Numbered from the stretch's first letter, positions 5,793 to 27,378 are shown. The stretch: DNA of 32,599 nucleotides from an uncultured Pseudomonadota bacterium (GCA_903918705.1 CAIXFP010000343.1:1-32599); one strand, 5' to 3'. Notes: a model not told the origin generated them from the letters alone. Translations and numbers: made by a program.

Positions 5793-5808
5793 TGTCTGCT
5801 GACGTACA
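5793..5808 (-). promoter_or_regulatory. Candidate Crp/Fnr-type operator (box 1)
   Basis: Gene-oriented sequence: TA-TGTAC-GTCAGC-AGACA-GAC. It lies 101-116 nt upstream of the glycine-zipper lipoprotein ATG and fits TGT-N10-ACA geometry. Confidence 0.4.
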
Positions 5809-5861
5809 TAAGCGGCAGCGGTGCTTGCATATCCTGGTCGGTGACGGCCAGCACCCTGCCG

Positions 5862-7268
5862 CTATTTCGGGTAGTTGAAGATGATGTTGACCCGACGGTT
5901 TTCCTGCTGCCCTTCCAGGCTGGTGTTGTAGGCGAAGCGCCGAGTCTCGCCAAAGCCTTGCGCCGCGAGCCGCGAGCGCGCGATGCCGAAGCGCTCGACC
6001 AAGATGTTCACCACGTTGCGCGCCCGCTGCCGGGAGACTTCCATCGCCTGCGCCGGGGTTCCCTGCAGATTGCCGGTGTGGCCTTCCACCGTCGCGGTGA
6101 TGGCGGGGTTCGCTTTCATCAGATAGGCCACTTTGGCCAGTTCGCTGTCGTATTGCGCTTTGACCTCAGCCTGGTTCTGGTCGAACTCGATCAGCAGAGC
6201 CATGGTGAGTCGGGCGGGAATCACCGTCAGGCCCGCCACATCCGTGGCGCAGGCGATGACGGCATCAATGCGCCGGTTCATGCGCTTGCCGAGCTCGCTG
6301 TCATTGGCCACCAGGGGGCGCGACTCGCCGTAGCCCACCGCCGCCAGGCGGCCGGGGGCGATGTGGCTGTTGTTTACCAGGTAGCTCACCACGCTCTCCG
6401 CCCGGCGCTGGGACAGAGCCTGGTTGTGTTCGACCGTGCCCACGTTGTCGCTGTGGCCCTCGATCAAGCCGGTGCTGTCGGGGTATTTATTGAGGAACAC
6501 ACCCAGCGCGGCGAGCTTGTCCTTCTCTTCGCGCTGGATGGCGTCCTGGTCGATCTCGAACTGGATGTCCAGGATGCCGCAGTACTGCTCGGTGCGGACC
6601 GGCACCACCACCAGGACCGGTGCGGCGCTGACGATGGGTGTCGGCGTCGGCAACGGGGCGGCGGCGACCGGTTCCTGCAGGGCGGTTTTCACGGCGTGGG
6701 CCGGGGTCTTGCCGCCGAAGCGATAGACCAGACCCAGGGAGAGGAGATCGATGTTGCCTTTGCTGCCGATGCCGTCGTTGACCCGGTAGCGCTCGGTTTC
6801 GAGGCGCAGGTCCAGGGACGGGGTGAAGGCGTATTGCACCCCCAGGCCGTATTTGAGATTCGTGTCGCGCTTGCTGGTATTGGCGATACCGTTGAAGGTG
6901 TCGTTCGTATCGGCGTAGTTCAATCCGGCCCGGGCAAATGCCGACCACTTGTCGCCCAAGGGCAGGAGGCCGACCGCATCGAGATTCAGGCCTTTCACCT
7001 TGTAGCTGCCGCTCAGGGCGCCCGGCGGCAACGAGGTGGCACTGAAGCCGAAACGGCCCAGGTCGAAATAGCCGCCTTCGAGGGCGAAATTCCTGTTGAA
7101 CTGGTAACCGCCGAACAGCTTGTAGCCGCTATCGTGGTTGTCGCTGTCGAGGTGCGAACGTGACTGGCCCAGATTGACGCCGCCATACCAGCCGGGGTCG
7201 TCCGCCAGCGCAACAGGGCTGACCAGGACTGCGAGGGCCGCCATCCATGACATGTTTGCCGCTTTCAT
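5862..7268 (-). CDS. OmpA-family outer-membrane protein: N-terminal beta-barrel plus two tandem OmpA_C peptidoglycan-binding domains
   Basis: 468 aa from the ATG at 7268, with AGGAG 7 nt upstream. Signal peptide MKAANMSWMAALAVLVSPVALA. Barrel repeats (GYKLFGGYQF, GLGVQYAF, LSLGLVYRF). Pro-rich linker. Two OmpA_C units (IEGHSDNVG..NQALSQRRAESV..NRRIDAVI and VEGHTGNLQ..EVSRQRARNV..NRRVNIIF). Confidence 0.9.
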   Translation of the reverse strand: MKAANMSWMAALAVLVSPVALADDPGWYGGVNLGQSRSHLDSDNHDSGYKLFGGYQFNRNFALEGGYFDLGRFGFSATSLPPGALSGSYKVKGLNLDAVGLLPLGDKWSAFARAGLNYADTNDTFNGIANTSKRDTNLKYGLGVQYAFTPSLDLRLETERYRVNDGIGSKGNIDLLSLGLVYRFGGKTPAHAVKTALQEPVAAAPLPTPTPIVSAAPVLVVVPVRTEQYCGILDIQFEIDQDAIQREEKDKLAALGVFLNKYPDSTGLIEGHSDNVGTVEHNQALSQRRAESVVSYLVNNSHIAPGRLAAVGYGESRPLVANDSELGKRMNRRIDAVIACATDVAGLTVIPARLTMALLIEFDQNQAEVKAQYDSELAKVAYLMKANPAITATVEGHTGNLQGTPAQAMEVSRQRARNVVNILVERFGIARSRLAAQGFGETRRFAYNTSLEGQQENRRVNIIFNYPK

Positions 7269-7325
7269 GCTTTTCTCCTGAGGTCGTGCTACTCGACCAC
7301 GGTGGGCGGCATGCCCCAAAGCGTC

Positions 7326-7341
7326 TGTCTGCTGGCGCACA
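7326..7341 (-). promoter_or_regulatory. Candidate Crp/Fnr-type operator (box 2)
   Basis: Gene-oriented sequence: TA-TGTGC-GCCAGC-AGACA-GAC. It lies 58-73 nt upstream of the OmpA-family ATG. Confidence 0.45.
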
Positions 7342-7380
7342 TACCCCGCAGACCTGCACCCTCAACATCCCGCTGCGAAG

Positions 7381-7396
7381 TGTTCGCTGGCGAACA
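7381..7396 (-). promoter_or_regulatory. Candidate Crp/Fnr-type operator (box 3, perfect half-sites)
   Basis: TGTTC-GCCAGC-GAACA in gene orientation. It is embedded in the perfect 8-2-8 palindrome GTGTTCGC-TG-GCGAACAC (7380-7397), in the divergent ompA-like/crp region. Confidence 0.5.
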
Positions 7397-7533
7397 CAGC
7401 TAAAGGAATTACCAGGTCACACTCCACCCACCCCTATGAACTCGTGACTATGATTCGTACCCTGATGCACGGGGTGGCTGGTCGTAAACCACCCGCTCGC
7501 ATCAGTCCTTCGAGATCATTATGCAAACTCCTA

Positions 7534-8241
7534 ATGCCCCCCCCCCAGAACCATCTACTGGCCGCCCTGCCTCCTGACGAATACGCGCGCCTGTCGCAGC
7601 ACCTGGTACTGGTGCCCATGGCGCTCGGCCAATCGCTCTGCGAGCCCGGCATGAAGATGCACCACGTCTACTTCCCCACCACCAGCATCATTTCCCTGCT
7701 CTACGTGATGGAGGATGGCGCCTCCGCCGAGATCGCCGTGGTCGGCTTCGAGGGGCTGGTCGGCGTCTCCCTGTTCATGGGTGGTGAAACCACCACCAGC
7801 CGGGCCGTGGTGCAAAGCGCCGGCCACGCCTACCGCCTGCGCGGGCCGCTGCTGAAGGAGGAGTTCTTCCGCGCCGGGCCGATGCAGCGCCTCCTGCTGC
7901 GCTACACCCAATCCTTGCTGACCCAGATGGCGCAGACCGCGGTGTGCAACCGCCACCATTCCCTGGGCCAGCAACTCTGCCGCTGGCTGCTGCTGAGCCT
8001 GGACCGCCTGCCCGGCAACGAATTGGTCATGACCCAGGAACTGATCGCCAACATGCTCGGGGTACGCCGCGAAGGCGTCACCGAAGCCGCCGGCCACCTA
8101 CAGAAAGAGGGCCTGATCGAGTATCACCGCGGCCACATCACGGTCCTCGACCGCAAGGGATTGGAAGCGCGGGTGTGCGAATGCTATTCGGTGGTGAAGA
8201 AGGAAAACGACCGCCTGCTACCGGAGTTCCTGGGACACTGA
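7534..8241 (+). CDS. Crp/Fnr-family transcriptional regulator (paralogue 1)
   Basis: 235 aa from the ATG at 7534. This start was chosen by alignment with paralogue 3 (MPPPQNHLLAALP vs MPTPSSPSQNHLLAALP). cNMP-binding-like beta-roll (HVYFPTTSIISL..EIAVVGFEGLVG) and C-terminal HTH (MTQELIANMLGVRREGVTEAAGHLQKEGLI). Confidence 0.88.
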   Translation: MPPPQNHLLAALPPDEYARLSQHLVLVPMALGQSLCEPGMKMHHVYFPTTSIISLLYVMEDGASAEIAVVGFEGLVGVSLFMGGETTTSRAVVQSAGHAYRLRGPLLKEEFFRAGPMQRLLLRYTQSLLTQMAQTAVCNRHHSLGQQLCRWLLLSLDRLPGNELVMTQELIANMLGVRREGVTEAAGHLQKEGLIEYHRGHITVLDRKGLEARVCECYSVVKKENDRLLPEFLGH

Positions 8242-8312
8242 TCCGGGCGCGGGGTTGCCGCCCCCTGTAACAAGGCGCTCAAGAAACACCCATTCACCCT
8301 CTGATTTTGTAG

Positions 8313-8376
8313 GGTGGATAAGCGTAGCGCATCCACCTATGACGGCGGTGATGGTGGATGAGCCGCGCTTATCCAC
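8313..8376. repeat. Pair of inverted REP-type hairpins (BIME-like)
   Basis: The two hairpins are ggtggat-aagcgtagcgc-atccacc (8313-8337) and ggtggatgagc-cgc-gcttatccac (8353-8376). The second is roughly the reverse complement of the first. They lie just downstream of crp paralogue 1. Confidence 0.7.
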
Positions 8377-8475
8377 TAGTTCAGGGCGAACGGATTCATT
8401 CAGCCTCTCCCTTGGCGCGGCAGTTCCAGTGGGGACTTCCACTACCACGACACAACCCACCGAAATCCGGCGCTA

Positions 8476-8491
8476 TGGACGTTGCCGCACA
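8476..8491 (-). promoter_or_regulatory. Weaker match to the box (box 8)
   Basis: The reverse complement reads TGTGC-GGCAAC-GTCCA, close to box 4 (TGTGC-GCCAGC-GTCCA). It lies 145-160 nt upstream of the collagen-like lipoprotein gene but in the opposite orientation to it. Confidence 0.25.
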
Positions 8492-8635
8492 GACTCCGCA
8501 GGCCATACGGCCCAACCTGCCGAACAGGGTCGTGCCGCGTCCACACGATCTCGCCGCTCAGACTAACCACTGTCCAGACGAGCCCCACAGGCGCACAGAC
8601 TGTCGAAATCAGTTCAAATAATCCAAGGAATCACC

Positions 8636-9556
8636 ATGAGAAATTCAATCTTGTCGAACAAGATGTTGAGAAGTCCGTTGCTGCTGGCCGTGGTCGCCAC
8701 GTTCGCAATTGCAGGCTGCAGCACAACCGGTGCACCGTTGATCAGCTATGTCGGCCCTCCCGGCGCCGATGGGCCGATGGGTCCGGCTGGCGAACGCGGC
8801 CCGACTGGCGCCAACGGCGCTCCCGGCATGGTCATGGCCGGTCCCGCCGGTGAAACCGGCCCCGCCGGTCCCGCCGGTGTGGCCGGCCCGATTGGAGCCA
8901 CAGGACCCGCCGGGGTGATGGTGGTGGGCCGTGCCGGCGCAGTCGGCCGCGCCGGGCCCATGGGTCCGCAAGGCGCCATGGGGGATAGCGGCGCCCAGGG
9001 CGTAAGCAACGCGGGCCCCGCCGGCCCGATGGGTCTCGCTGGTCCCTCCGGCATTCAAGGTGTCGTCGGCAGCATCGGCGCGCAAGGGCCCACCACGGTC
9101 GGCCCGACCGGACCCACCGGCCGCACCGGCCCCGCCGGCGACCAGGGTTTGACCGGATATACTGGCATCCAGGGCAGTCCCGAAATGCTTGGCGTCGCCG
9201 GCCCGGTTGGCCGTACCGGCGCCGCGGGCGTGCAAGGCCCGATCGGCCCGACCGGTGCCCAGGGCTCGCCGGCTATCCTGTATGGCAGCTGGAGTTCCTA
9301 CTGGATCTACAACTTCAACGGCTACAACAACGCGATGCAGCGCGCCGATGACGGCAAGTCGAGCCAGATCGCCAACTACTTGGATCGGAACCCGTCGCGC
9401 CAGATCGGCCTGGATGGTGGCGACTCACGTAACGTGTCCACCGTGCGCGATGCCTTGATCGCCGCGGGTGTGCCTCCCGGCAAGATCCAGACGGGTGCCT
9501 TCGGCGACCCGCAACTCAGGCGCGATGATCGGGTGGCGGTGCTGCTCAACAATTAA
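8636..9556 (+). CDS. Lipoprotein with a collagen-like G-X-Y triple-helix repeat region and a degenerate OmpA_C-like C-terminal domain
   Basis: 306 aa. AAGGAA lies upstream. Lipobox FAIAGC. About 190 aa of interrupted GXY repeats (GPPGADGPMGPAGERGPTGANGAPG...GPIGPTGAQGSP). The C-terminal ~90 aa (IANYLDRNPSRQIGLDGG..VRDALIAAGVPPGKIQTGAFGDP..DRVAVLL) follow the OmpA_C fold pattern. Confidence 0.85.
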   Translation: MRNSILSNKMLRSPLLLAVVATFAIAGCSTTGAPLISYVGPPGADGPMGPAGERGPTGANGAPGMVMAGPAGETGPAGPAGVAGPIGATGPAGVMVVGRAGAVGRAGPMGPQGAMGDSGAQGVSNAGPAGPMGLAGPSGIQGVVGSIGAQGPTTVGPTGPTGRTGPAGDQGLTGYTGIQGSPEMLGVAGPVGRTGAAGVQGPIGPTGAQGSPAILYGSWSSYWIYNFNGYNNAMQRADDGKSSQIANYLDRNPSRQIGLDGGDSRNVSTVRDALIAAGVPPGKIQTGAFGDPQLRRDDRVAVLLNN

Positions 9557-9578
9557 GCCCACTGTCGTGTAGATCAGG

Positions 9579-9603
9579 ACGGCGCGATTGCGCCGTTTTC
9601 TTA
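9579..9603 (+). terminator. Rho-independent terminator
   Basis: acggcgc-gatt-gcgccgt followed by ttttctt. It begins 23 nt after the collagen-like gene stop. Confidence 0.75.
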
Positions 9604-9641
9604 GCGCTGCGCTGCGCAACTGAGAGGTTGAAACAACCTGG

Positions 9642-9661
9642 ATTCCCGCCTACGCGGGAAT
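9642..9661. repeat. Short REP-like hairpin
   Basis: attcccgc-ctac-gcgggaat. A degenerate relative, ggatttcccggcgggaatg, is at about 16296-16316, after the second PEP-CTERM gene. Confidence 0.5.
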
Positions 9662-9736
9662 GATGGACCCATTGGCAGCCGTTTTGGAAATAGTTACAGG
9701 CTCTGAGCCAAATCCGCGACTTCGCCCCGTGAGCTA

Positions 9737-9752
9737 TGTGCGCCAGCGTCCA
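9737..9752 (+). promoter_or_regulatory. Candidate Crp/Fnr-type operator (box 4)
   Basis: TA-TGTGC-GCCAGC-GTCCA-GAC. The left 13 nt are identical to box 2 and the right half is degenerate. It lies 118-133 nt upstream of the crp paralogue 2 GTG. Confidence 0.35.
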
Positions 9753-9869
9753 GACAAGTGCGGCATTCCTCCCCATGCTTAATGTTGCCCAGCCCGGGGG
9801 GGCGCTCCGGGTTCGCATGCGACATTTCCCCTATGCCGCCTGCCGGGTTTCCCCACCCGGAGAGTTCAC

Positions 9870-10577
9870 GTGCCGCGCACCCAGTCAGTCCCCGTCGCCA
9901 ATCGCCTCCTTGCCGCCCTGCCGCGCAAGGATCGCCTGCGCTTCGTGGCGGGTTGCGCGGATGTCGAACTGGTGTTCGCCGAGGTGCTGGCCGAACCGGG
10001 CGAGCGCATCCGCCACGTCTACTTCCCCACCCACAGCTTCATCTCGCTGACCACGCCTATCGACGGCCATGTCGCCCTCGAGGTGGGCATGGTCGGCGAC
10101 GAAGGCATGCTCGGCATTTCGCTCCTGCTCGGCGTCGATGTTTCACCCCTGCATGCCCTGGTGCAGGGTGCGGGCCCGGCGTTACGCATTAATGCGGCGC
10201 CCTTCCGCCGCGAGTTGGAACAGAGTCCGGCCCTACGGCGCCTGTTGCAACGTTACCTCTATGTGCTGATGACCCAACTCGCGCAAACCGCCGCCTGCAC
10301 CCGCTACCACTTGGTGGAGGCGCGCCTCGCCCGCTGGCTGCTGATGACGGGGGATCGGGCCCATGCGGACGAGTTCCGCCTCACCCATGAATTCCTGGCC
10401 TATATGCTGGGAGTGCGTCGCGTCGGCATCACCAAGGCCGCTTCCGCGCTGCAACAACGGGGGCTGATCCACTATCACCGCGGCGATATCACGCTACTCG
10501 ACCGTGCTGGTCTGGAATCGCACTCCTGCAGCTGCTACGCGGCAGACAAGGCCACCTATGCCCGGGTGCTGGGCTAG
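9870..10577 (+). CDS. Crp/Fnr-family transcriptional regulator (paralogue 2, divergent)
   Basis: 235 aa. GTG start with GGAGAG 5-6 nt upstream. Same architecture as paralogues 1 and 3 ([29 protein letters not shown]; [32 protein letters not shown]), but clearly less similar to them than they are to each other. Confidence 0.88.
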
Positions 10578-10595
10578 CGAACTGGCCGCAGGCGA

Positions 10596-11156
10596 TCAGG
10601 CTGCTGCGCCGTACTTCGCCAGCAATTCGCCCAGCAACTTGAGCTGTTCCTTCTGGATCGCCAACAACTCGCCCCACTGGCCTTCCCGCAGCAAATCCAC
10701 TTTGTCGTGCAGCAACATGATCTCGAGTTCGGCCTTGAGGTTCACCTCGTAATCGTGTTCCGCGTTGAGCCGGTCCTTTTCCGCCTGCCGGTTCTGCGAC
10801 ATCAGGATGATGGGCGCCTGGATGGCGGCCAGCATGGAAAGCACCAGGTTGAGCAGGATGTAGGGGTAGGGATCGAAGGCCCCGGCGTGATTCACCAGGA
10901 TGTACGAGTTCAGGGCGACCCAGATCACCAGCACCACCCCGAACAGGCTGATGAAGGTCCAGGAGCCGCCGAAACGCGCCACCCCATCCGCCGCGCGCTG
11001 GCCCAGGGTGGTCTTCTCCGCGAATTCCCGGGCAGTGTTTCTGGCGATGTGCTTGCGCCCGGCAATATGGCGCGCCACTTTTTTGGTGAGGTCATCCAGT
11101 GATTCATAGGGGATGCCGAGCAGTTTCTCGGCAACGTCGTCGGGTTTCTTGATCAT
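10596..11156 (-). CDS. DUF1003-domain membrane protein
   Basis: 186 aa from the ATG at 11156 (GGAGAG upstream): MIKKPDD...FGGSWTFISLFGVVLVIWVALN..DPYPYILLNLVLSMLAAIQAPIILMSQNRQAEKDR. Coiled-coil tail. The 274-aa track ORF is an extension. Confidence 0.85.
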   Translation of the reverse strand: MIKKPDDVAEKLLGIPYESLDDLTKKVARHIAGRKHIARNTAREFAEKTTLGQRAADGVARFGGSWTFISLFGVVLVIWVALNSYILVNHAGAFDPYPYILLNLVLSMLAAIQAPIILMSQNRQAEKDRLNAEHDYEVNLKAELEIMLLHDKVDLLREGQWGELLAIQKEQLKLLGELLAKYGAAA

Positions 11157-11254
11157 GGTGGCTCTCCGTGTGGCCACCCGGCCCCAGGCCGGGTATTCCG
11201 GCAAATTCTGCGCGTAAGCGCCCCTGGCGAGCGGAACAATATTTCTGTCTGCTT

Positions 11255-11270
11255 GGTTCGCCAGCGCACA
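11255..11270 (+). promoter_or_regulatory. Candidate Crp/Fnr-type operator (box 5)
   Basis: GGTTC-GCCAGC-GCACA-GAT in the divergent DUF1003/lmo0937 region, 67-82 nt upstream of the lmo0937-type ATG. It is preceded by tctgtctgct, which resembles the outer flank of boxes 1 and 2. Confidence 0.4.
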
Positions 11271-11336
11271 GATCGTGGCGGGAAATAAGCAGATCGTCGA
11301 AATTGTCGAAACATTCACATACCCACGGAGTTTGCA

Positions 11337-11483
11337 ATGCTCGAAACCATCGCGGTTGTCTTGATTATCTTCTGGGTGCTCGGCCTGGTTTCGTCCTACA
11401 CCATGGGCGGGTTTATCCACATTCTCTTGGTCATCGCGGTCGTGATGCTGTTGATGCGGGTCATCCAGGGACGCCGCCTGTGA
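11337..11483 (+). CDS. lmo0937-family small membrane protein (48 aa), absent from the ORF track
   Basis: MLETIAVVLIIFWVLGLVSSYTMGGFIHILLVIAVVMLLMRVIQGRRL. GGAG lies 6 nt upstream. The two-TM pattern ending in ..GRR is typical of this family. It was translated directly from the sequence. Confidence 0.75.
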   Translation: MLETIAVVLIIFWVLGLVSSYTMGGFIHILLVIAVVMLLMRVIQGRRL

Positions 11484-11524
11484 CTTGAAGGTATTCCAAT
11501 TTCACTTGGTCCGGAGGACATGAA

Positions 11525-12355
11525 ATGAGAACACTCAAGTTCCTGGCAAGCGTTTCATTCGGAATGGTTGCCGCGTGTTTTAGTATCCATCCGGCAATGG
11601 CCATACCCCTACTCGGGTCGGCACAGAATTTCACCGTGCTCGCCGCGTCGACAGTGACCAATACCGGTGCGACCACCATTCTGGGTGATATTGGCTTATT
11701 TCCAGGTACGTCGATTACGGGCCTGGGAACCCTTTCACTCATGGGAACGGTATACCAGACGGACACGGTTGCACATCAGGCCGAGATTGACGCACTGGCC
11801 GCCTACAACATGCTTGCCAACCTGCCGGTCACCCACAATCTGAGTGGCCTGGATTTGGGCACCGTGGGCACGCTGCAACCGGGCGTCTATCAATTTGATT
11901 CGTCGGCGCAACTGACCGGGACGCTCACCCTCGATTTCGGTTACGACGCCAATGCCCTGTTCGTATTTCTTATCGGCAGCACGCTGACGACCGCAAGCGA
12001 TGCCAAAGTCTACGTGAACAATGGCGGCGGCAATGACGGCGTGTACTGGCAGGTTGGCAGTTCCGCAACCATGGGCAGCAATACACTGTTTGCCGGGAAC
12101 ATTCTCGCGGAACAAAGCATCACCCTGAATACCGGCGCGGAAATTCTCTGCGGCAGGAGCATCGCGCTGAATGCCGCGGTGACGCTGGATGGCAACACCC
12201 TCGCCAACAATTGCAACGGTAGTACCAATGGTGATTTCGGCAGCGCCGGTTTCAGTGGTGATGGTCATGGCGGCAATGTTCCGGAGCCATCCATTCTGTC
12301 GCTTCTTGGCATTGGATTGTCGGGAATCGGCATCAGCCGCCGGTGGCATGCGTGA
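11525..12355 (+). CDS. Ice-binding-like (DUF3494) family protein with a PEP-CTERM sorting signal
   Basis: 276 aa. GGAGGA lies 6 nt upstream. Signal peptide present. DUF3494 pattern: AQNFTVLAASTVTNTGATTILGDIGLFPGTSITG..LQPGVYQFDSSAQLTGTLTLD..NALFVFLIGSTLTTAS..VYWQVGSSATMGS..FAGNILAEQSITL. C-terminus VPEPSILSLLGIGLSGIGISRR. Confidence 0.88.
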   Translation: MRTLKFLASVSFGMVAACFSIHPAMAIPLLGSAQNFTVLAASTVTNTGATTILGDIGLFPGTSITGLGTLSLMGTVYQTDTVAHQAEIDALAAYNMLANLPVTHNLSGLDLGTVGTLQPGVYQFDSSAQLTGTLTLDFGYDANALFVFLIGSTLTTASDAKVYVNNGGGNDGVYWQVGSSATMGSNTLFAGNILAEQSITLNTGAEILCGRSIALNAAVTLDGNTLANNCNGSTNGDFGSAGFSGDGHGGNVPEPSILSLLGIGLSGIGISRRWHA

Positions 12356-12433
12356 TCCGAATGAAAGCTTTTCGACGATTAGGTAATTGCGCGGTCAACG
12401 ACGCGCCGGGTTGATTCAAGACAAGGAGACGAC

Positions 12434-12905: not shown

Positions 12906-12915
12906 GCGTCGCGCC

Positions 12916-14725: not shown

Positions 14726-14842
14726 ATGCCGTCCTAACGCTTAACCAGGACATCCACAGACTCAATGTCTGTCTGCCTCACGCTGAAAAGTCTTCAGAGC
14801 ACCCCGTCGTCACTTTCCGCCATCTGATCAGGAGTACACACC

Positions 14843-20400: not shown

Positions 20401-23400
20401 CGCAGCACCACCTGGGCGTGGGTCCAGGCCAGTTCGAACACCCGGTCGGCCAGGCGGCGGTCGCGATATTTCTCCACCAGGGCCAGGGCGGCCGCGCGGC
20501 TGTCGCCGATACCGTAGACCAGGTCGATGCTGGCGGTCTGCTCCGGTTCCAGGGTGATGCTGCAGCGGATGGCCAGCATCGGGTCGAGCACCGAACCCTG
20601 GCTGCCGGAGAGCACGCCGTCCGCGTCCAGCGCCTGGGGTGCCGCGACATCACGGCCGCGGCCGAGAAAGCGGGCGCGATCGGTTTCGTAGGAAATCGCG
20701 TCGATGTCCGCATCATGGACGGCCAGCAGATGGAACATCCAGGGCGTCGCCTCGTCCCGGGAGCGGGGGCGGCGGGTACACAGCAGGGCCTGCTGCGGCG
20801 CGACGATCTCGGTCTGCACGAACAGGTTGCTGAACGCTGGATGCAGGGCGTCGGCGGCGGCGGGAGCCAGCACCACCTCGGCGTAGGTGGTGAGTTCGAT
20901 GGTGCGGCGGCTGGCACCGCGGTTGGTGATGCGGATCCGGCGCAGTTCGATGTCTTCTTCCGGGGAGACGACGATGTCGGTGTGGGTGTCGAAATCGAAC
21001 GCCTGGCCACGATCGCGGCGGCGGAATTCGGCCCGCCCTTCCGAGAAGATGGCCTCGTAGTGTTCCGTTTGGCGCAGGGTGGGCTGGTGGGCGGTGGACC
21101 AGGTGGTGCCGCTTTCCGTATCGCGAAGGTAAGCGAAACTGCCCCAGGCATCGCGGGTGCCGTCCTCGCGCCAACGGGTGACGGCCAGGTCGCGCCAGCG
21201 GCTGTAGCCGCCGCCGGCGTGGCTGATCATGACGTGATAGCGGCCGTTGGAGAGCAACTGCACTTCCGGGGTCGCGCTGTCGGGCTGGGTCAACACCCGG
21301 ATCGGCATTTCCGGACTGTCGACGCCGGCCTGGCTGGCGTTCAGTTCGGCGTTGTGGGTATGGAAGGCCGTGGCACGGGGGATGCGTTCCTGCAGCAACA
21401 ACAGAGTGGCCTGCAACAGCGAGTCGGCCGCGAAGCGTTTCTGCATCGGCCGGTCCAGCAGCAGATAGGCCAGGGCCAGCAGGCTCATGCCCTGGTGGTG
21501 CGCCATGTAGGAGCGCACCAGGGCGTGGGATTCGCCGCGCCGCTGCCGCGCCGGGGTGTAGTCGATGGCCTCGTAGAAGCCGAACCAGCCTTCCGCGCCC
21601 AGGGCGGCGAGGCGCTCCAGGTTCTCGCAGGCGGCCTCCGGCGCCACCATCAGGGCCATCACCGTGGCATAGGGCGCCACCACCAGGTCCTCGGCGAGGC
21701 CGCGCTTCAGCCCCAGGCCGGGCACGCCGAAGGCGCGGTACTGGTAGTTGAGTTGCACGTCCACCGCGTTGTAGCCGGATTCCGACATGCCCCAGGGCAG
21801 GCCGCGCTGCTGGCCGTACTCGATCTGCCGCGCCACCGCCGAGCGCATGGTCTGGTCGAGCAGGGTGTGGTCGTAGTTGGGCATCACCAGTTGCGGCATC
21901 AGGTACTCGAACATGGAGCCGCTCCAGGACAGCAGGATCGGCTCGCCGCCGCTGCGGGTGAGCAGGCGCCCCAGGGCGAACCAGCTCTCCTGGGGCAACT
22001 GGCCCTGGGCGATGGCGACGAACACGGTGAGGCGCGCTTCCGAGGCGAGGAGATCGTAGTAACTGCTGTCGCGCCGCCGCTCGTCCACGTTGTAGCCGAT
22101 GGCCAGCAGGCGCGCGGCCTTGTCGTAGAGGAAGCCGTATTCCATCTCGGCCAGTTCGCCGGCCTGCCGGGCGCGTTGCCGGAGGGCGGCGATGCGCACC
22201 CGGGCGCGCTCGCTGCCCAGTTCGATACGGCGGTCGAGTTCGCCCCGCCAGGCATCCCCGGCCGGTGTGGCGCCAAGGCTGGCGGGGCCGGGCGCCAATT
22301 CGGCCAGGGCGCGCAGGGTCGGGATGACGTCGATTTCGGGGGGCGCTGCGAGGCCGTCCGGGGCCGCTGGCATGCTGAGCCAGGGCGCGAGAAAGACCAG
22401 CTCGTCCCGGACCGCCCGGCATTGCTGCGCCAGGGCACGCAGCCACCAGCACGCCTGGCTCTCGGGCACCTGCCCCAGGTTCTCGTGCATGGCCTCGGCG
22501 GCCTGGCTCAACTGCTCGAGCAGGCGCCAAACCGCCGCAAGGGTGGTGGGCCGGAGCGCGTTCGCCGCAGCGTACTGGGTGCGGAATTGCGCCAGTTGGG
22601 CTGGGAATGTGCCACCCCCGGTGGCACCCGCGGCTTCCTCCAGTATCCCCAGGATGTCGCCCAGGCCGTCCAGCCAGCGCGGTGCCAGGATGGGCCGGTC
22701 GATGAGGGAGGTGAGACCGGGACGCAGGGTCAGCAGGTGGCCCGCCAGGTTGCCGCTGTCCACGGTCGAGACATAGGCCGGGTGCAGCGGCGCCAGCGTC
22801 TGGGTGTCGTACCAGTTGTAGAAATGGCCGTGGTACCGGTCCAGGCCCGCCATGGTGTCCAGGGTGTGGCCGCAGCGCTCGAGCAGCTGCTCGGCGGTGA
22901 GGTAGCCGAAGTCGTGGGCGGACAGGTAGGCCAGCAACGCCAGGCCCATGTTGGTGGGGGACGTGCGGTGGGCCAGGGCGCCGGTGCGATATTCCTGATA
23001 GTTGTCCGGGGGCAGCCAGTGGTCCTCCGGGCCGACGAAGGTCTCGAAGAAGGCCCAGGTCTTGCGTGCGATGCGGCCGAGGAACCGGCTCTGGTCTCCG
23101 CTCAGGCGAGCTTCGCGGCGAGCCAGCGGGCGGCTCAACCACCAGGCGACGGCGGGGGACACCAGCCACAGGATCAGGATGGGGGCGGCCACAGGCAACG
23201 CGGCCGGCACCACCGCCGCCAGGTAAATCGCGGTGGCGGCCGCCAGCAGCGGGGCGAACCCCATGGTGCGGAAGGCGGCGGCCAGGTCGTTGCGGCTGGC
23301 CAGTTCCTGGTCGCCGGAAGGATTCCATTCCAGCAGCCGTTGGTGCGATACCCCCAGTCGCCAGAGGGTGCGCAGGATCGCATCCAGGCTGTAACCCGCC

Positions 23401-26075
23401 TCGTGGGGCAGGGTCACCAGGGCAAACAGCGCCTGGATGCCGCGCAAGCCGGTGGCGTGGGCGATGGCGGCCAGGTGCTGGCCCAATCGCATCTCGTCCG
23501 GTTTGCGCAGGAGATCGTGCAGGCTGGCCAGCAGCGGCGGAATCAGGAGCACGCCGAGCAGCGCCAGGGTCCATGGCAGGGGCGCGGTGGACGCGGTCCA
23601 GCCCAGCACCAGGAGCAGGGTCAACGCCGCCGGCACCAGGCTGCGGCGCAGGTTGTCGAACAGTTTCCAGCGCGCCAGCCAGGACAGCGGATTCCGGCCG
23701 CGGCGCCGGTCGGGGCCGCGCAGCCACGGCAGCAGCCAGCCGATGAGCTGCCAATCGCCGCGGATCCAGCGGTAGCGGCGGTTCACGTCGGCACCGTAGC
23801 GGGCCGGGTATTCCTCGTACAACTGCACGTCGCTCAACAGCCCGGCGCGCACGTAACAGCCCTCCAGCAGGTCGTGGCTGAGGATGCGGTTCTCGCGGAA
23901 ACGCCCCTGCAGCGCCTGCTCGAAGGCGGCCACGTCGTAGATGCCCTTGCCGATGAAGGAGCCTTCCCCGAAGGCGTCCTGGTACACGTCGGAGACGGCG
24001 CGGGTGTATGGGTCGATGCCCGGCTCGCCGCTGTTCAGGCGGGCATAACGCGACAGGGTGGCGCCGGGCAGGCTCACGCTCACCCGCGGCTGCAGGATGC
24101 CGTAGCCGGCCACCACCCGGCCTTGGGACGCGTCATAACGCGGTCGATTGAGGGGGTGTGCCATGGTGCCGACGCATTCCCGGGCGGCGTCGCGCGGCAA
24201 CTGGGTGTCGGTGTCCAGGGTGATGACGTAGCTCACCCCGACCAGCAGCGCGGTGTCGCCCACCAGCAGGGAGAATCCGTCACGTTTGCCTTCGCGCAGC
24301 AGGGCGTTGAGGTCGGCCAGCTTGCCGCGCTTGCGCTCGTAGCCCATCCAAAGCCGGTCATGGGGGTTCCAGCGGCGCGGCCGATGCAGCAGGAAAAAGG
24401 CGTCGTGGCCGTCTACCCCATAGCGCGTGTTCAGGGCTTCGATGCGCGCCCGGGCCCGTTCCAGCAGCGCTATGTCCTCGGGCAAGGTTTCCGCGGCCGC
24501 GTCGCGCAGGTCGGTCAACAGGGCGAAAAACAGGTTCGCATCGCGGTTGGCCAGGAAGCGGACTTCCAGCGCCTCGGCCAGGCTGTCGATGTTGCGCGGG
24601 CTGGCGAGCATGGTGGGGACCACCACCAGGGTGCGGAATTCGGCCGGGATGCCGGCGGAATAATCCATGCACGGCAGGGCATGAGGCGACGCCAGCAGGG
24701 TGGCCAGCCAGTTCACCAGGGCGGAGGCGAGCTGGCCGCTGGCCACCAGGGCGAGCAGTCCCAGGGGGAGCAGCGTCCAATGCGCCCAGCCGGCTCCACG
24801 CACTTCGGCCAGGAAAGCGGCGGCCAGGAGCGTGGTGAGCAGGGTGATCGCGCCCAGGTACAGGGGCAGTGGCGAGTCCCCTGCGCCGCGGCGCAGGCGC
24901 GCGGCAAGGGGCGGACGGGCGCCCAGGGCCCGTTCCAACTGGAGGCGTCCGCGGTCGATCAGGTAGTAGCCGACGTGGGCGGTCCGGTCGCCCACGCCGT
25001 TGTTGTCCGCGCCGGACCGGGCCAGTTCGATGGCGCGGGCGGCTACCGTGTCCTCGTTGAACAGGCTCGACTTCGCCACCTGTTCGACCACGTGGCGGTA
25101 GTGGTCGCGGCTGGCGAAATCCATGCCGGCATAGGCCGAACCCGGGTCCGTGCGCAGGGTGCGTTCCACCAGGCTCAAGGATTCGACGAACTCGCGCCAG
25201 TCCATGGTGCCCAGGAAGCGCAGGCTGCCGATGCTGTTGCTGATGGAGACCTGGTCGGCGGCCTGGTGCTGGTTGCCCATGCGCACCGACTGTTCGATGC
25301 TCGCCCCCGATTCGGCCAGTTGCTGTTCGATCCAGGTCAATGGCAGGGCCAGGGTGGGGCCTTGCCCCTGGAGCCGGCGCGCCAGTTCCGAGACGAACGG
25401 CGGCGACATGGGCGGCTGCGAGCGGGCCATGTCGGCGATGACCAGGATCAGATTCTTCGGGGCCTGGCGGGCGACTTCGCTCAACTTGTCCGCCCAGTAG
25501 ACCGCCAGGTCCCGATCCGCGCGGCCATGGGCGATGCGCACCGCGACCCGGCGCAGGTTCTCGATCAGGGCCAGGCGCAGCATGATCGGAATGGCCCACA
25601 ACTCGCCCAGGCGCAGCGGGCTGACCGTCTGGTAGGCGGCGACGAAGCGGCTCAGGCTGTCCGGGTCGACCCGGCCGTCGCCATGGGCGATGGTTTCCAG
25701 GGCGATGTCGTAGACCCGCGGCAACCCATGCGACGCACCCCCGGCAAGGCTGGGCAATTCCCGGCTGTAGCCCTTGGGCAGGTGGCGCCGGGCGGTGCGA
25801 ATCTGTTCCTCCACCAGGTAGAAGTTGTCCAGCAGCCATTCCCCGGCCGGCGTGATGCGCTGTTTCGCCGTCACCGCCCTGGTCAACTGGTCGCAGGTCT
25901 CGACCAGTACCGCCTCGTTGGCCGCCAGCCGCGCCAGCAGCGGGTCCGGCACCCGGCGCGGCGCCAGGCGGTGGGTGCCGGCGAGGCGCACGCCGTGCTG
26001 GGCCATCTGGTCGCTGCTGAACAACTCCGCCCGTAGCGGCGGCGCCTCGACGCAGTCTTTGCCCGGCGCGCTCAT
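17436..26075 (-). CDS. ndvB: Cyclic beta-1,2-glucan synthase (NdvB/ChvB/Cgs type; GT84 + cyclisation region + GH94 phosphorylase-like domain)
   Basis: About 2879 aa. TM segments flank a glycosyltransferase region (ITLDTDTQLPRDAA, RRYRWIRGDWQ). A C-terminal GH94-like region follows (GGAFGFRDQLQD, MGSGDWNDGMN, IWAAMAYA). The start was set at MSAPGKD..PLRAELFSSDQMAQHG (ATG at 26075). An ATG at 26207 is an alternative but adds 44 non-conserved-looking residues. Confidence 0.93.
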   Translation of the reverse strand: MSAPGKDCVEAPPLRAELFSSDQMAQHGVRLAGTHRLAPRRVPDPLLARLAANEAVLVETCDQLTRAVTAKQRITPAGEWLLDNFYLVEEQIRTARRHLPKGYSRELPSLAGGASHGLPRVYDIALETIAHGDGRVDPDSLSRFVAAYQTVSPLRLGELWAIPIMLRLALIENLRRVAVRIAHGRADRDLAVYWADKLSEVARQAPKNLILVIADMARSQPPMSPPFVSELARRLQGQGPTLALPLTWIEQQLAESGASIEQSVRMGNQHQAADQVSISNSIGSLRFLGTMDWREFVESLSLVERTLRTDPGSAYAGMDFASRDHYRHVVEQVAKSSLFNEDTVAARAIELARSGADNNGVGDRTAHVGYYLIDRGRLQLERALGARPPLAARLRRGAGDSPLPLYLGAITLLTTLLAAAFLAEVRGAGWAHWTLLPLGLLALVASGQLASALVNWLATLLASPHALPCMDYSAGIPAEFRTLVVVPTMLASPRNIDSLAEALEVRFLANRDANLFFALLTDLRDAAAETLPEDIALLERARARIEALNTRYGVDGHDAFFLLHRPRRWNPHDRLWMGYERKRGKLADLNALLREGKRDGFSLLVGDTALLVGVSYVITLDTDTQLPRDAARECVGTMAHPLNRPRYDASQGRVVAGYGILQPRVSVSLPGATLSRYARLNSGEPGIDPYTRAVSDVYQDAFGEGSFIGKGIYDVAAFEQALQGRFRENRILSHDLLEGCYVRAGLLSDVQLYEEYPARYGADVNRRYRWIRGDWQLIGWLLPWLRGPDRRRGRNPLSWLARWKLFDNLRRSLVPAALTLLLVLGWTASTAPLPWTLALLGVLLIPPLLASLHDLLRKPDEMRLGQHLAAIAHATGLRGIQALFALVTLPHEAGYSLDAILRTLWRLGVSHQRLLEWNPSGDQELASRNDLAAAFRTMGFAPLLAAATAIYLAAVVPAALPVAAPILILWLVSPAVAWWLSRPLARREARLSGDQSRFLGRIARKTWAFFETFVGPEDHWLPPDNYQEYRTGALAHRTSPTNMGLALLAYLSAHDFGYLTAEQLLERCGHTLDTMAGLDRYHGHFYNWYDTQTLAPLHPAYVSTVDSGNLAGHLLTLRPGLTSLIDRPILAPRWLDGLGDILGILEEAAGATGGGTFPAQLAQFRTQYAAANALRPTTLAAVWRLLEQLSQAAEAMHENLGQVPESQACWWLRALAQQCRAVRDELVFLAPWLSMPAAPDGLAAPPEIDVIPTLRALAELAPGPASLGATPAGDAWRGELDRRIELGSERARVRIAALRQRARQAGELAEMEYGFLYDKAARLLAIGYNVDERRRDSSYYDLLASEARLTVFVAIAQGQLPQESWFALGRLLTRSGGEPILLSWSGSMFEYLMPQLVMPNYDHTLLDQTMRSAVARQIEYGQQRGLPWGMSESGYNAVDVQLNYQYRAFGVPGLGLKRGLAEDLVVAPYATVMALMVAPEAACENLERLAALGAEGWFGFYEAIDYTPARQRRGESHALVRSYMAHHQGMSLLALAYLLLDRPMQKRFAADSLLQATLLLLQERIPRATAFHTHNAELNASQAGVDSPEMPIRVLTQPDSATPEVQLLSNGRYHVMISHAGGGYSRWRDLAVTRWREDGTRDAWGSFAYLRDTESGTTWSTAHQPTLRQTEHYEAIFSEGRAEFRRRDRGQAFDFDTHTDIVVSPEEDIELRRIRITNRGASRRTIELTTYAEVVLAPAAADALHPAFSNLFVQTEIVAPQQALLCTRRPRSRDEATPWMFHLLAVHDADIDAISYETDRARFLGRGRDVAAPQALDADGVLSGSQGSVLDPMLAIRCSITLEPEQTASIDLVYGIGDSRAAALALVEKYRDRRLADRVFELAWTHAQVVLRQINASEADAQLYGRLANSVIYAHAALRADAGVLLRNRRGQSGLWGYAISGDLPIVLVRIADLANVELVRQLIQAHAYWRLKGLAVDLVIWNEDRAGYRQTLQDQILGLVAVGLETQVIDRPGGIFIRSAEQISEEDRILFQTVARIILSDGRGTLAEQLTRPDALEPRVPRLAPGKSLRPEAAAAFALPVRDLILGNGLGGFTPDGREYVITTTPDLLTPAPWVNVLANAQFGSVVSESGQAYTWSENAHEFRLTPWLNDPVSDPSGEAFYLRDEETGQFWSPTPLPRRGATPYVCRHGFGYSVFEHAESGIQSELWVYVALDAAVKFSVLKVRNGSGRPRRLSATGYVEWVLGDLRPKSAMYLVTEVDPYSGALYARNPYNGEFPGRVAFFDVDVADRTGTCDRAEFIGRNGSLTNPAALRRTHLSGKSGSGLDPCGALQVGFDLADGEEREIVFRLGVGGTPGGEDANHLAQRTRGGEAARQALEDVWHYWNHTLGAVQVETPDQSLNVLSNGWLLYQTLACRMWARSGYYQSGGAFGFRDQLQDAMALLHSEPGLLRAQLLLCAGRQFHEGDVQHWWHPPAGRGVRTHCSDDYLWLALATCRYVLGSGDSGVLEEAVPFLEGRLLSPDDDDYFDLPGRSTTSESLYLHCVRALRHGLRYGEHGLPLMGSGDWNDGMNRVGVGGKGESVWLGFFLHEVLRQFAVLARGHGDPESADFCLAEAAHLGENLEQHAWDGAWYRRAWFDDGTPLGSAGNVECWIDSIAQSWSVLSGVADRERARRAMQSLDEHLVRRDAGLIQLLDPPFDQTDMDPGYIKGYVPGVRENGGQYTHAAIWAAMAYAAQGDSRRAWELTTLINPANHAKSPDAIAVYKVEPYVMAADVYAVAPHTGRGGWTWYTGSAGWMYRLILESLLGLRLEVDKLHVAPCLPGHWPGFTVHYRYRETVYHIAVVQGGAVGLTLDGVALEGQAIPLLDDRHEHTVMVKV

Positions 26076-26101
26076 GCCGCCCGGGTACGCCTTGGAAAAA
26101 A

Positions 26102-26118
26102 GTGTCCGAATCCGACAC
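26102..26118. promoter_or_regulatory. Near-perfect 17-bp palindrome in the glucan synthase leader
   Basis: GTGTC-CGAATCC-GACAC lies 27-43 nt upstream of the ATG at 26075. A related TGTCACGAATCGAC lies at 26642-26655, just upstream of the divergent gene's ATG (26676). Confidence 0.3.
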
Positions 26119-26231
26119 CAATGACCGATGAGCTTCGTTTTGCCCCCTTTCCAAGCTGGTCCCAAATTGTTCTCCCGACCGCTCAAGGGGCGGTGGTTGC
26201 GACACACGGCGGGACGCCAGTGTGTGGATGA

Positions 26232-26400
26232 CTAGCAGCCTGTCGGACTTCGGTCGTCGATAGCGAGAAAGGGCCCCAGCGAGGCCAGTTTTTGCCGGAT
26301 TCGCCGCCGCATAGTCGAACTATGGGGCAAGAAGCCGGTGAAAAATGGACCGCTGCGGTCGTTTCGCAGCCGACGATTCCAAAGTCCGACAGGCTGCTAG
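26232..26400. repeat. 169-bp MITE-like / highly structured element with perfect 19-bp terminal inverted repeats
   Basis: CTAGCAGCCTGTCGGACTT (26232-26250) is the exact reverse complement of AAGTCCGACAGGCTGCTAG (26382-26400). Internal extra pairings: tcgtcg/cgacga, catagt-cga-actatg and gctgcg-gtcgttt-cgcagc. No ORF is present. Confidence 0.6.
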
Positions 26401-26675
26401 GATCGGAGTGCCCCGGGCGGTTGGACCCGGACGCCCGGGAGCCATTCCCGGGACAGCGCTGAACAGGTTTGGGCGGCGGTTCCACTCGACCTTGGTTGCC
26501 TACGCCCGCATGCAGGTTACAGGTGATTGGCGGCGGGGTTGCGCCGGCGGTCGACAGGTAACCGGTTGCGATAATACTTGAGTAATTATGTCGGACAAGG
26601 TCTATAAGGTTCTGGTGTGATGCGGCAATCTTGCCGGCATCTGTCACGAATCGACCTTTTTCAAAGGCAGGCAAC

Positions 26676-27092
26676 ATGCGCAACCTCCATATCGACTACC
26701 AAGGTGACGCCCTCAATTTCCAGAGCGCCAGTCTCCTCGCCAAAGGCCTGGCCCGGGACAACCAGATGCAGGACCCCACCATCATGGCCTGGCACCAGAG
26801 CGGCGAAGAAGCCGCGACGCCGTTCTACGACGGCGCCGATCCGGATTCCTGGTGGGCCAAGTACGGCGCCGGTAACGGTGGCAAGCTGGAGGTCTGCATT
26901 GGTGACGACTACCAGTTCATCCTGATGGACGCACGCGGCTACGAGACCCTGGGCGAGATGCCTCTGCGCAATCGCTCCGATGGCCACGGCAAGGAATATC
27001 TCTGCTACACGCCGATGCTCGGCAAGGCCACTGACAAGCCCACGGCGGAAGCCTGCATCGAACTGGACGGCTGGGCGGCGGACCAATACTGA
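26676..27092 (+). CDS. Hypothetical protein (138 aa); N-terminal half resembles AF1514-type small proteins (from memory, unverified)
   Basis: ATG at 26676: MRNLHIDYQGDALNFQSASLLAKGLA..DPTIMAWHQ..WWAKYGAGNGGKLEVCIGDDYQFILMD. Divergent from the glucan synthase gene. A hairpin, atcggcgc-N11-gcgccgat, follows the stop. Confidence 0.6.
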   Translation: MRNLHIDYQGDALNFQSASLLAKGLARDNQMQDPTIMAWHQSGEEAATPFYDGADPDSWWAKYGAGNGGKLEVCIGDDYQFILMDARGYETLGEMPLRNRSDGHGKEYLCYTPMLGKATDKPTAEACIELDGWAADQY

Positions 27093-27156
27093 GTGCCGTG
27101 ATCGGCGCGCGCCCAGGCGGCGCCGATATCCTTCAACCTGAATAGAGGAAATCATC

Positions 27157-27288
27157 ATGATCAAAGGGCAACACTCCAATAAGGAAGCGAAAAAACATTC
27201 CCTTCTGACCACCAAGGAAAAGAAGGCGGCCAAGCAGGCCAGGAAACATGCCGGCGACCCGGTCCCCTTGATCGTCAAGGGCTCCTGA
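27157..27288 (+). CDS. 43-aa lysine-rich small protein (paralogue B), absent from the ORF track
   Basis: MIKGQHSNKEAKKHSLLTTKEKKAAKQARKHAGDPVPLIVKGS. GAGGAA lies upstream. Paralogue of 14843-14974. A hairpin, cgggagc-N11-gctcccg (27307-27331), follows. Confidence 0.75.
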   Translation: MIKGQHSNKEAKKHSLLTTKEKKAAKQARKHAGDPVPLIVKGS

Positions 27289-27362
27289 GCAGGGGTTCCG
27301 CGCCGTCGGGAGCAGGTCTGCACCGCTCCCGCCTAATGGTCATGCAGGGTTCGGCCTGCGTC

Positions 27363-27378
27363 TGTGTGCCAGCGTACA
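27363..27378 (+). promoter_or_regulatory. Candidate Crp/Fnr-type operator (box 6)
   Basis: TGTGT-GCCAGC-GTACA-GAC, within the extended imperfect palindrome TCTGTGTGCCAGCGTACAGA. It lies 130-145 nt upstream of the histidine kinase ATG. Confidence 0.45.

Follow-up and report, generated by a model that had tools for sequence, protein, structure and literature searches.

We analyzed a 32,599-nucleotide (nt) stretch of DNA from an uncultured Pseudomonadota bacterium (GCA_903918705.1 CAIXFP010000343.1:1-32599), the whole of which is called the window here, and in particular a recurrent 16-bp box that lies upstream of genes for three Crp/Fnr-family regulators (crp1, crp2 and crp3) and of lipoprotein and other envelope genes. 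The closest relatives of crp2 came from metagenome-assembled genomes (MAGs) of Gallionellaceae, Thiobacillus and Rhodocyclaceae, with 75-86% identity, which points to a betaproteobacterium of that neighbourhood as the source of the window. All three regulators are HTH_Crp_2 proteins by Pfam and share the recognition helix GVRRxGxTxAA; a cyclic-nucleotide-binding Pfam domain was not matched by crp2 and was matched below the cut-off by crp1. The regulator genes are as follows.

7444-8241, plus strand: crp1, recognition helix GVRREGVTE (Pfam matches).
9870-10577, plus strand: crp2, recognition helix GVRRVGITK (HTH_Crp_2 only).
30043-30774, plus strand: crp3, recognition helix GVRREGITE, last gene of a kinase operon (Pfam matches).

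The boxes and their predicted target genes are listed below with scores from a position matrix that was built from 220 sites in external loci, oriented by their flanks, with no window sequence used. The external sample comprised 80 loci (1.27 Mb) fetched around crp2 orthologues, the window itself excluded, and spanned Gallionellaceae, Thiobacillus, Sedimenticola, Denitromonas, Paralcaligenes, Acidithiobacillus, Methylococcaceae and others.

5793-5808, minus strand: box 1, taTGTACGTCAGCAGACAgac; predicted -10 CAAGAT at 5771-5766, predicted start near 5759; 31.4 bits.
5692-5480: target of box 1, a gene for a 70-amino-acid (aa) glycine-zipper lipoprotein (ribosome-binding site; glycine-zipper Pfam match).
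7326-7341, minus strand: box 2, taTGTGCGCCAGCAGACAgac; predicted -10 CACCGT at 7304-7299, predicted start near 7292; 30.7 bits.
7268 (ATG) to 5862: target of box 2, an OmpA-like gene (OmpA Pfam matches).
7381-7396, plus strand: box 3, TGTTCGCTGGCGAACA; the best of the palindromes, flanked by GAC on neither side; candidate -10 CACACT at 7418-7423.
8476-8491, plus strand: the weak box, taTGGACGTTGCCGCACAgac; predicted -10 CAACCT at 8513-8518, predicted start near 8525.
8636-9556: target of the weak box, a collagen-repeat lipoprotein gene (collagen Pfam match; open reading frame [ORF]).
9737-9752, plus strand: box 4, taTGTGCGCCAGCGTCCAgac; predicted -10 CATGCT at 9774-9779, predicted start near 9786; 34.3 bits; the predicted autoregulatory promoter of crp2 (9870-10577).
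11255-11270, plus strand: box 5, ttGGTTCGCCAGCGCACAgat; predicted -10 GATCGT at 11292-11297, predicted start near 11304; 23.2 bits.
11337-11483, then 11525-12355: targets of box 5, a gene for a 48-aa DUF5670 membrane protein followed by an ice-binding-like/PEP-CTERM gene (ORFs and Pfam).
15229-15244, plus strand: box 7, taTGTGTGGAAGCGTACAgac; predicted -10 CAAACT at 15266-15271, predicted start near 15278; 32.4 bits.
15434 or 15572 to 16276: target of box 7, the second PEP-CTERM protein gene (PEP-CTERM Pfam match).
27363-27378, plus strand: box 6, tcTGTGTGCCAGCGTACAgac; predicted -10 GATGCT at 27400-27405, predicted start near 27412; 31.5 bits.
27508-29211, 29208-30032 and 30043-30774: target operon of box 6, encoding a hybrid PAS histidine kinase, a response regulator (REC-PAS) and crp3 (Pfam).

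An initial annotation of the window had reported these eight boxes, and all were present where it placed them, with the sequences and flanks it quoted. Its statement that every copy is intergenic also held (8/8) once three over-long ORFs were trimmed to ATG 7268 (ompA-like), ATG 27508 (histidine kinase) and ATG 11156 (the DUF1003 gene, divergent from box 5). At two or fewer mismatches, TGTNNGCCAGCNNACA gave 12 strand-hits in the window where 3.2 were expected, a count that was not attained in any of 100 shuffles. A position weight matrix scan, a kind of check that the initial annotation had proposed, was run with the external matrix on the window and the 80 related loci. In the window, the external matrix re-found exactly the eight boxes, which scored 16.7-34.3 bits in gene direction; seven of them reached at least 23 bits, and box 3 scored 16.7 bits in total (box-only 20.9, flank -8.5). 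No other position in the 32.6-kb window exceeded 8 bits, a value exceeded by 0.4 matches in shuffles. The 80 relatives contained 152 matches at one or no mismatch to the 12 specified bases, for which a rough chance estimate is 3 to 10, and 404 strand-hits above 18 bits with the full matrix versus 0 in five shuffles. Two other origins of the box were considered and rejected. As a repeat or mobile element it would not have the unrelated flanks that were observed, together with conservation of the motif across orders in orthologous promoters; as an RNA element (leader or riboswitch) it has no Rfam family at gathering score in the window, and it lies upstream of the predicted transcription start.

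The box is an inverted repeat. Aligned with wide flanks, the window copies form a 7-2-7 arrangement, TGTnCGC-NN-GCGnACA, and the 220-site matrix gave a cross-species consensus of TGTnCGC-(T/C)A-GCGnACA, a 16-bp core of two 8-bp halves that are equally conserved and mirror each other in information content. Position 5 is C (0.93) and positions 6-7 are GC, the fourth base of the half-site is loosely specified (G 0.57, A 0.26, T 0.15), position 13 is C at 0.45, and the central dinucleotide is T 0.61 or C 0.32 followed by A 0.78. With sites oriented by the -10 alone, the center was TA in 38, CA in 33 and TG in 19. The initial annotation had described a 5-6-5 layout with CRP/NtcA-class geometry and a conserved asymmetric core, GCCAGC. 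The geometry was correctly recognized, but the layout is 7-2-7 and the supposed asymmetric core is a local CA variant of the family-wide palindromic consensus GCTAGC.

The box is also part of a longer element of about 45 bp, T-A-TGTgCGC-(T/C)A-GCGnACA-GAC, followed by 18 bp and (T/C)AnnnT. The -10 signal, which was not used in selection, occupied box positions 38-43 of the 220 sites (T 0.52, A 0.79, n, n, C 0.48, T 0.80). In a stricter set with the palindromic core as the sole selection criterion (151 sites, or 302 orientations), A-N3-T lay at position 39 in 114 of the 302 orientations, with 35 at offset 40 (an 18-bp spacer) and 4-18 at other offsets. An independent replicate of 122 metagenome sites, matched on box and GAC alone, gave the same picture, with the -10 at offset 39 in 56, at offset 40 in 28 and elsewhere in 2-11. 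All eight window boxes carry nAnnnT at positions 38-43, that is, 22-27 nt after the box. The claim that the box marks promoter regions is borne out by this -10 element at a fixed distance, and 24-294 nt beyond the predicted transcription start of each window box there is a gene with a ribosome-binding site.

Orienting sites by the -10 only recovered the flanks as T(-1) 0.81, A(0) 0.51, G17 0.93, A18 0.93 and C19 0.70, so the GAC is independent of the site-selection scheme. The initial annotation had noted the TA...GAC flanks correctly and knew of no consensus to which they belonged, but a reading can now be offered. The palindrome is extended by T(-1) and A18, which mirror each other, leaving G17 and C19 as the true asymmetry, and G17-A18-C19 fit the GAC of a -35 hexamer at positions 15-20 (caGACn vs ttGACa), with a canonical 17-bp spacer to the -10. 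A -35 in this position and a 17-bp spacer to the predicted -10 would place the box center at about -41.5, the position of a class II activator relative to the predicted start of transcription. A scan of window positions 5400-16400 for standard sigma-70 consensus promoters found 0 versus 3.0 expected, which fits activator-dependent promoters.

The flanks and the -10 also set the direction of each copy. The weak box had been described as lying in reverse orientation; its TA...GAC flanks and -10 orient it with its gene, and it scored 24.0 bits on the plus strand vs 9.9 on the minus strand. Where seven of eight copies had been said to share the orientation of the downstream gene, we found 8/8, box 3 being oriented by its -10-like hexamer alone.

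Placement in the relatives followed the same pattern. Genes there were called with a crude caller based on third-codon-position G+C (GC3), which missed small and low-GC3 genes and over-extended 5' ends, so the orientation and coding statistics are conservative estimates. Among 364 matches above 18 bits, 72% were intergenic, 16% fell in the 5'-terminal 150 nt of an over-extended ORF on the same strand, 4% in such an over-extended 5' stretch on the opposite strand and 8% deep in coding DNA, compared with a coding share of 78% for the 80 loci. In this sample the box is therefore not equally frequent in coding DNA, a comparison that the initial annotation had asked for. In tandem intergenic contexts, 83 sites were co-oriented with the downstream gene and 31 opposed, and an ORF with a ribosome-binding site lay downstream of 272/316 sites vs 178/316 in the reverse direction.

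Orthologous promoters, the other comparison suggested at the outset, also carried the box. It was present with its promoter upstream of 62 of the 80 crp2 orthologues, 60-135 nt before the start codon, and these promoters share the degenerate right half of box 4, GCG[T/C][C/G]CA. When 27 crp2 upstream regions were aligned, the only invariant columns were the box, the GAC and the A and T of the -10, with the ribosome-binding site and start codon nearly invariant. Kinase homologues had a co-oriented promoter in 10 of 22 cases. Few orthologues of the box 1, 2, 5 and 7 genes occurred within 10 kb of crp2 in the 80 loci, so conservation is demonstrated at the level of gene families and for the crp2 and kinase genes rather than for every box. 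Judged by sequence comparison, the site, its layout and its regulator are conserved in many Beta- and Gammaproteobacteria. Two further features were seen in the crp2 promoters. In many of them (loci L003, L008, L020, L026, L040 and L047) the spacer between -35 and -10 contains cAGGTTTC at a distance of about 11-17 nt from the box, where the window copy reads GGCATTCC. The 5' leader of crp2 (9786-9869 in the window; about 85-135 nt) contains the blocks CATCCGACATCGGGATTGCA and GCCGCCTGCCGGGTTTCCCC, semi-conserved across taxa, the first including a short hairpin-like CCGA-CA-TCGG; these blocks might represent a second operator or an RNA element of the leader.

The genes under the box resemble a general-stress set. 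Counted as first ORFs downstream of sites in the relatives, they were crp2 itself (36), CsbD (16), BON-domain lipoproteins (11), DUF3309 (9), a 200-aa secreted Cys-repeat protein with no family assigned (9), glycine-zipper proteins (9), DUF5670 (6), Ysc84/SYLF (6), DUF3096 (4) and DUF1328 (2). The promoter also preceded 4/9 DUF883 homologues and 2/5 holin-X-like homologues. In the window, the corresponding genes encode glycine-zipper and other lipoproteins, an OmpA-like protein, DUF5670, DUF883 and PEP-CTERM proteins. The dedicated stress/envelope gene set proposed in the initial annotation is thus recognizable in the downstream families, Crp genes included. Gene sets of this kind are controlled by RpoS in enterobacteria and by EcfG (EcfG/PhyR) in Alphaproteobacteria.

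The three paralogues differ in their relation to the box. Orthologues of crp2 with 62-86% identity occur in at least 590 species-level genomes, and the wider subfamily was found in a plasmid collection in Rhizobium, Burkholderia, Cupriavidus and others, with generic annotation only. A crp1-type gene adjoins crp2 in 53/80 loci, ending about 200 nt before it, and the two form a conserved tandem pair; crp3-type genes occur in 16/80 loci. In the window, the collagen-repeat lipoprotein gene (8636-9556) is inserted with its own box between crp1 and crp2. The full promoter was found upstream of 64/85 crp2-type genes, 5/54 crp1-type genes and 3/18 crp3-type genes. At the positions of CRP Glu181 and Arg185, crp2-type proteins have Val and Lys/Arg and crp1/crp3-type proteins have Glu and Glu, and in an alignment crp2 and NtcA both have Val at the Glu181 position. 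From structural knowledge of CRP and NtcA, a valine there would fit the poorly specified fourth base of the half-site. The concentration of promoters upstream of crp2-type genes and this valine together favor crp2 as the binder, and the crp2-type paralogue (helix RRVGxTK) is most likely both binder and autoregulator, on the evidence of these sequence comparisons.

The crp1 gene has a promoter class of its own. Its orthologues usually have two upstream boxes. The distal box has a GAC pointing away toward a divergent gene and the right half GCAGACA, as in window boxes 1 and 2; box 2 is its counterpart in the window, pointing away from crp1 with the right half GCAGACA common to the relatives. The proximal box has no GAC and lies 135-150 nt upstream (for example L002 8912, L006, L028 8956, L038 12575 and L051 9551), and a strong TATACT/TATAAT-like -10 follows it at a distance of 17-23 nt (mode 19), which is shorter than in the main class by 2-3 bp. 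A -10 at the modal distance puts the box center near -38.5, a geometry that suggests a different control mode for crp1, possibly repression. Box 3 had been taken for a second box of the ompA-like gene, and comparison with relatives reassigns it as the proximal box of crp1 (7444 or 7564 to 8241). The initial annotation had proposed autoregulation for two of the three regulators; in fact all three Crp genes have an upstream box, although that of crp1 belongs to this different promoter class.

In boxes 1 and 2 (5790-5810 and 7323-7343) the right half and flank take an unusual form, CAGCAGACAGAC, which in relatives lies between crp1 and a divergent glycine-zipper lipoprotein gene, and the window may have duplicated the CAGCAGACAGAC-type promoter when the ompA-like gene came to adjoin crp1. 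Box 1 probably also drives the next 70-aa lipoprotein gene (5353-5141), and the unit under box 5 probably extends to the DUF883 (12510-12905) and holin-X-like (12823-13308) genes. After these two comes a transaldolase gene (13292-14725, plus strand), whose longest ORF places about 130 extra N-terminal residues ahead of the TAL_FSA domain. The gene may be cotranscribed from box 5, or the start of the ORF may be over-called. Directly upstream of box 7 there is a terminator-like hairpin with a T-run (15187-15208, plus strand), which separates the promoter of the second PEP-CTERM gene from the upstream unit. Box 6 (27360-27381) has GAC on both sides (GTC-box-GAC) and in the reverse direction scores 28.7 bits, with GACCAT as its -10. 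In that direction there is no supported gene, and the product could be a transcript, divergent or antisense, toward the 3' end of the DUF5619 gene (26631-27092).

Two other loci lie between boxes 7 and 6. A 2923-aa ORF (17436-26207, minus strand) has glycosyltransferase 2, glucoamylase-like and GH94 domains and resembles a giant cyclic beta-1,2-glucan synthase; no box is found upstream of it here, and a metagenome contig (L092) has a box before a similar 2514-aa gene. A PIN-domain toxin gene (16616-17008) and a small upstream partner ORF (17008-17337), together occupying 16616-17337 on the minus strand, have the look of a VapBC-type toxin-antitoxin pair.

Taken together, the box would be the operator of a dimeric Crp/Fnr-family regulator in an activator-dependent class II promoter, with a crp2-type protein as the most likely binder, a reading to which we assign a probability of roughly 0.72. 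The motif, its palindromy, the fixed spacing to the -10, the intergenic and gene-oriented placement, the conservation and the gene set are computational observations; activation rather than repression by the bound regulator is what we infer. A Crp/Fnr-family dimer on the box at about -41.5 would contact RNA polymerase and compensate for the missing -35 TTG and the weak -10. By this mechanism, crp2 would activate its own gene via box 4 and the kinase/response regulator/crp3 operon via box 6, and the regulon would consist of small secreted or membrane general-stress proteins. The earlier view, that the box marks Crp-class operators of a stress/envelope regulon with autoregulation, is largely supported and was right in substance, with its anatomy corrected.

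Several points weigh against this reading. The loci were anchored on crp2, so the association of regulator and site is partly built in, and the -41.5 position depends on a predicted -10. The crp1- and crp3-type paralogues share most of the recognition helix, and the conserved pairing of crp1 with crp2 means that co-occurrence cannot separate them. The -41.5 layout does not accommodate box 3 or the crp1 class. G17 and A18 are 93% conserved, above what is usual for a -35 in activator-dependent promoters; the regulator, or a particular sigma factor, may recognize these two bases, in which case they would be more than a vestige of a -35. Finally, the crude gene calls leave 31/114 tandem-context sites seemingly mis-oriented and 43 sites in seemingly convergent gaps.

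The strongest alternative keeps the same architecture and has the box bound mainly by a crp1/crp3-type protein (helix RREGxTE), or by all three paralogues competing or forming heterodimers. We consider it possible though doubtful. The helix GVRRxGxTxAA is common to all three proteins and crp1 so often adjoins crp2, and a locus on Burkholderia cenocepacia chromosome 2 (L081; NZ_CP091013.1 262408-287112), where the one examined Crp homologue is of the crp1/3 type (RRSGVTE), has several related boxes, GGTACGnnAnCGTACC, followed by GAC and an nAnnnT -10 at the same spacing, with the look of a variant box. The distribution of full promoters among crp2-, crp1- and crp3-type genes argues the other way, as do 21 loci in which only crp2 is found within 10 kb. 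A glutamate at the CRP-181 position would moreover be expected, from what is known of CRP structure, to fix G at box position 4, which is G at only 57% of sites.

It is unlikely that the box is instead a repressor operator, at which a Crp-family dimer on the -35 region blocks RNA polymerase until a signal arrives. The overlap of the site with the -35 region would suit such a role, and the crp1 class, with its strong TATACT -10 and a box 2-3 bp closer, is occlusion-like. Promoters of the main class, however, have no TTG in the -35 and mostly a weak -10 (CAnnnT or GAnnnT in the window), and would thus be poor promoters without help. Class II activators that make face-of-helix contacts typically show such rigid spacing to the -10 (17 bp here), and the lack of a consensus sigma-70 promoter in 5400-16400 also speaks for activation.

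A bipartite promoter of an alternative sigma factor (-35 GCGnACAGAC, -10 TAnnCT), with no Crp protein involved, appears very improbable. It would account for the very high conservation of G17, A18 and C19, for a gene set that resembles sigma-controlled general stress regulons (RpoS, EcfG), and for the C favored at the fifth -10 position (0.48), as in sigma-S promoters. A sigma factor, however, needs no left half-site, and here TGTnCGC, 8-14 bp upstream of any -35, is equally conserved and the exact reverse complement of the right half; the -10 is of housekeeping or sigma-S type rather than of the extracytoplasmic function (ECF) type, and Crp genes with predicted autoregulation adjoin the sites. 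Although TGT-N10-ACA is the textbook NifA site, its interpretation as a NifA-type upstream activator sequence for sigma-54 promoters is effectively refuted, since -24/-12 matches occurred at chance (22 vs 20.2 expected), none of them downstream of a box, a sigma-70-type -10 is found at fixed spacing instead, and no enhancer-binding protein gene was found in the window by Pfam.

The preferred class II activator layout has a close precedent. Canonical NtcA-activated promoters consist of GTA-N8-TAC, N22 and TAN3T, with the site centered near -41.5 (PMC3898017), and the two layouts are numerically identical in GT-N10-AC, the 22 nt from C to the -10, the TAnnnT -10 and the class II position. Spacing and -10 are thus exact, and A4/T13 of the NtcA box are not required here (G 0.57, C 0.45). 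NtcA is also the closest characterized relative of all three paralogues by sequence (E ~1e-4 for crp2). The paralogues are not NtcA itself, scoring 20.4-24.9 bits against the TIGR03697 equivalog cut-off of 244.95. The present system also differs in the half-site, TGTnCGC with a conserved CGC rather than TGTA; in retaining a conserved GAC as a remnant of the -35, an element that is missing from NtcA promoters; in a regulon directed to stress and envelope rather than nitrogen; and in its hosts, Beta- and Gammaproteobacteria rather than cyanobacteria.

Features in common with class II promoters of Escherichia coli CRP and FNR (TGTGA-N6-TCACA and TTGAT-N4-ATCAA, -41.5) are a dimeric Crp/Fnr protein of the winged-helix type, an inverted repeat of 16 bp with 8 bp in each half, overlap of the site with the -35, and weak promoters that depend on an activator. 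Box positions 5-7, however, are CGC here rather than A-N-N. An E. coli-type CRP site was rejected, with C (0.93) rather than A at position 5 and no cNMP_binding match in crp2; an FNR/Anr box was rejected as well, since the motif differs and the N-terminal Cys cluster is absent, the conserved cysteines being at 143, 220 and 222. In Sinorhizobium meliloti, a GC-rich proteobacterium, the cAMP/cGMP-binding CRP-like activator Clr recognizes the box TGTT-N8-AACA. Box 3 (TGTTCGCCAGCGAACA) fits this consensus, but in the present family position 4 may be G, A or T, CGC is obligatory, and the gene set differs. The low-oxygen-activated (lxa) regulon of B. cenocepacia is likewise an island of stress-protein genes that includes Crp-family regulators and two-component genes and has a palindrome in common upstream (PMC3721108); it was rejected as a known equivalent, its motif, TGA-N6-TCA (Anr/FNR-like), being a different box.

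The residues Cys143, His147, Cys220 and Cys222 (crp2 numbering) are invariant in the three paralogues and 13 orthologues, with the Cys-x3-His in the long dimer helix and the Cys-x-Cys just after the DNA-binding domain. This Cys-x3-His...Cys-x-Cys set may form a sensing site, for a metal or for redox state, that differs from the sites in CRP, FNR and NtcA. An AlphaFold model of crp2 (13-sequence alignment) had a mean pLDDT (predicted local distance difference test score) of 49, too poor for a fold search or a check of the Cys/His arrangement, and was not used.

With regard to gene content, the regulon shares CsbD, BON/OsmY-like, glycine-zipper/OsmB-like, DUF883 (ElaB/YqjD-like) and DUF1328 proteins with the RpoS and EcfG-PhyR regulons, and would differ from them in relying on a transcription-factor box at -41.5 instead of, or besides, a dedicated sigma-factor promoter. 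More tentatively, the crp1-crp2 pair, with the kinase/response regulator/crp3 operon as a second tier, might be the general stress master switch of a large block of Beta- and Gammaproteobacteria, an analogue of RpoS or EcfG-PhyR built from transcription factors, with Cys/His rather than cyclic-nucleotide sensing and with operator and -35 fused into one composite element through the GAC.

No description of the motif or regulon was found in the freely accessible literature searched in full text. What is new is an operator and a regulon for an uncharacterized Crp/Fnr subfamily, not a new mechanism. Genes of the CsbD, BON, DUF883, glycine-zipper, DUF1328, DUF3309 and DUF5670 types are common in stress transcriptomes and poorly understood. 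If the proposed reading is true, a widespread unnamed Crp/Fnr subfamily, present in at least 590 species-level genomes, would gain a function and a DNA motif, and the control of these genes in Beta- and Gammaproteobacteria would be explained, including in lithotrophic and environmental groups such as Gallionellaceae, Thiobacillus, Sedimenticola and Methylococcaceae. Where a genome or MAG has no transcriptome, the 45-bp element can serve to predict its promoters and transcription starts. The system would also be an example of regulator replacement, in which a similar regulon is placed under RpoS in enterobacteria, under EcfG in Alphaproteobacteria and, in these lineages, under a Crp/Fnr-family protein.

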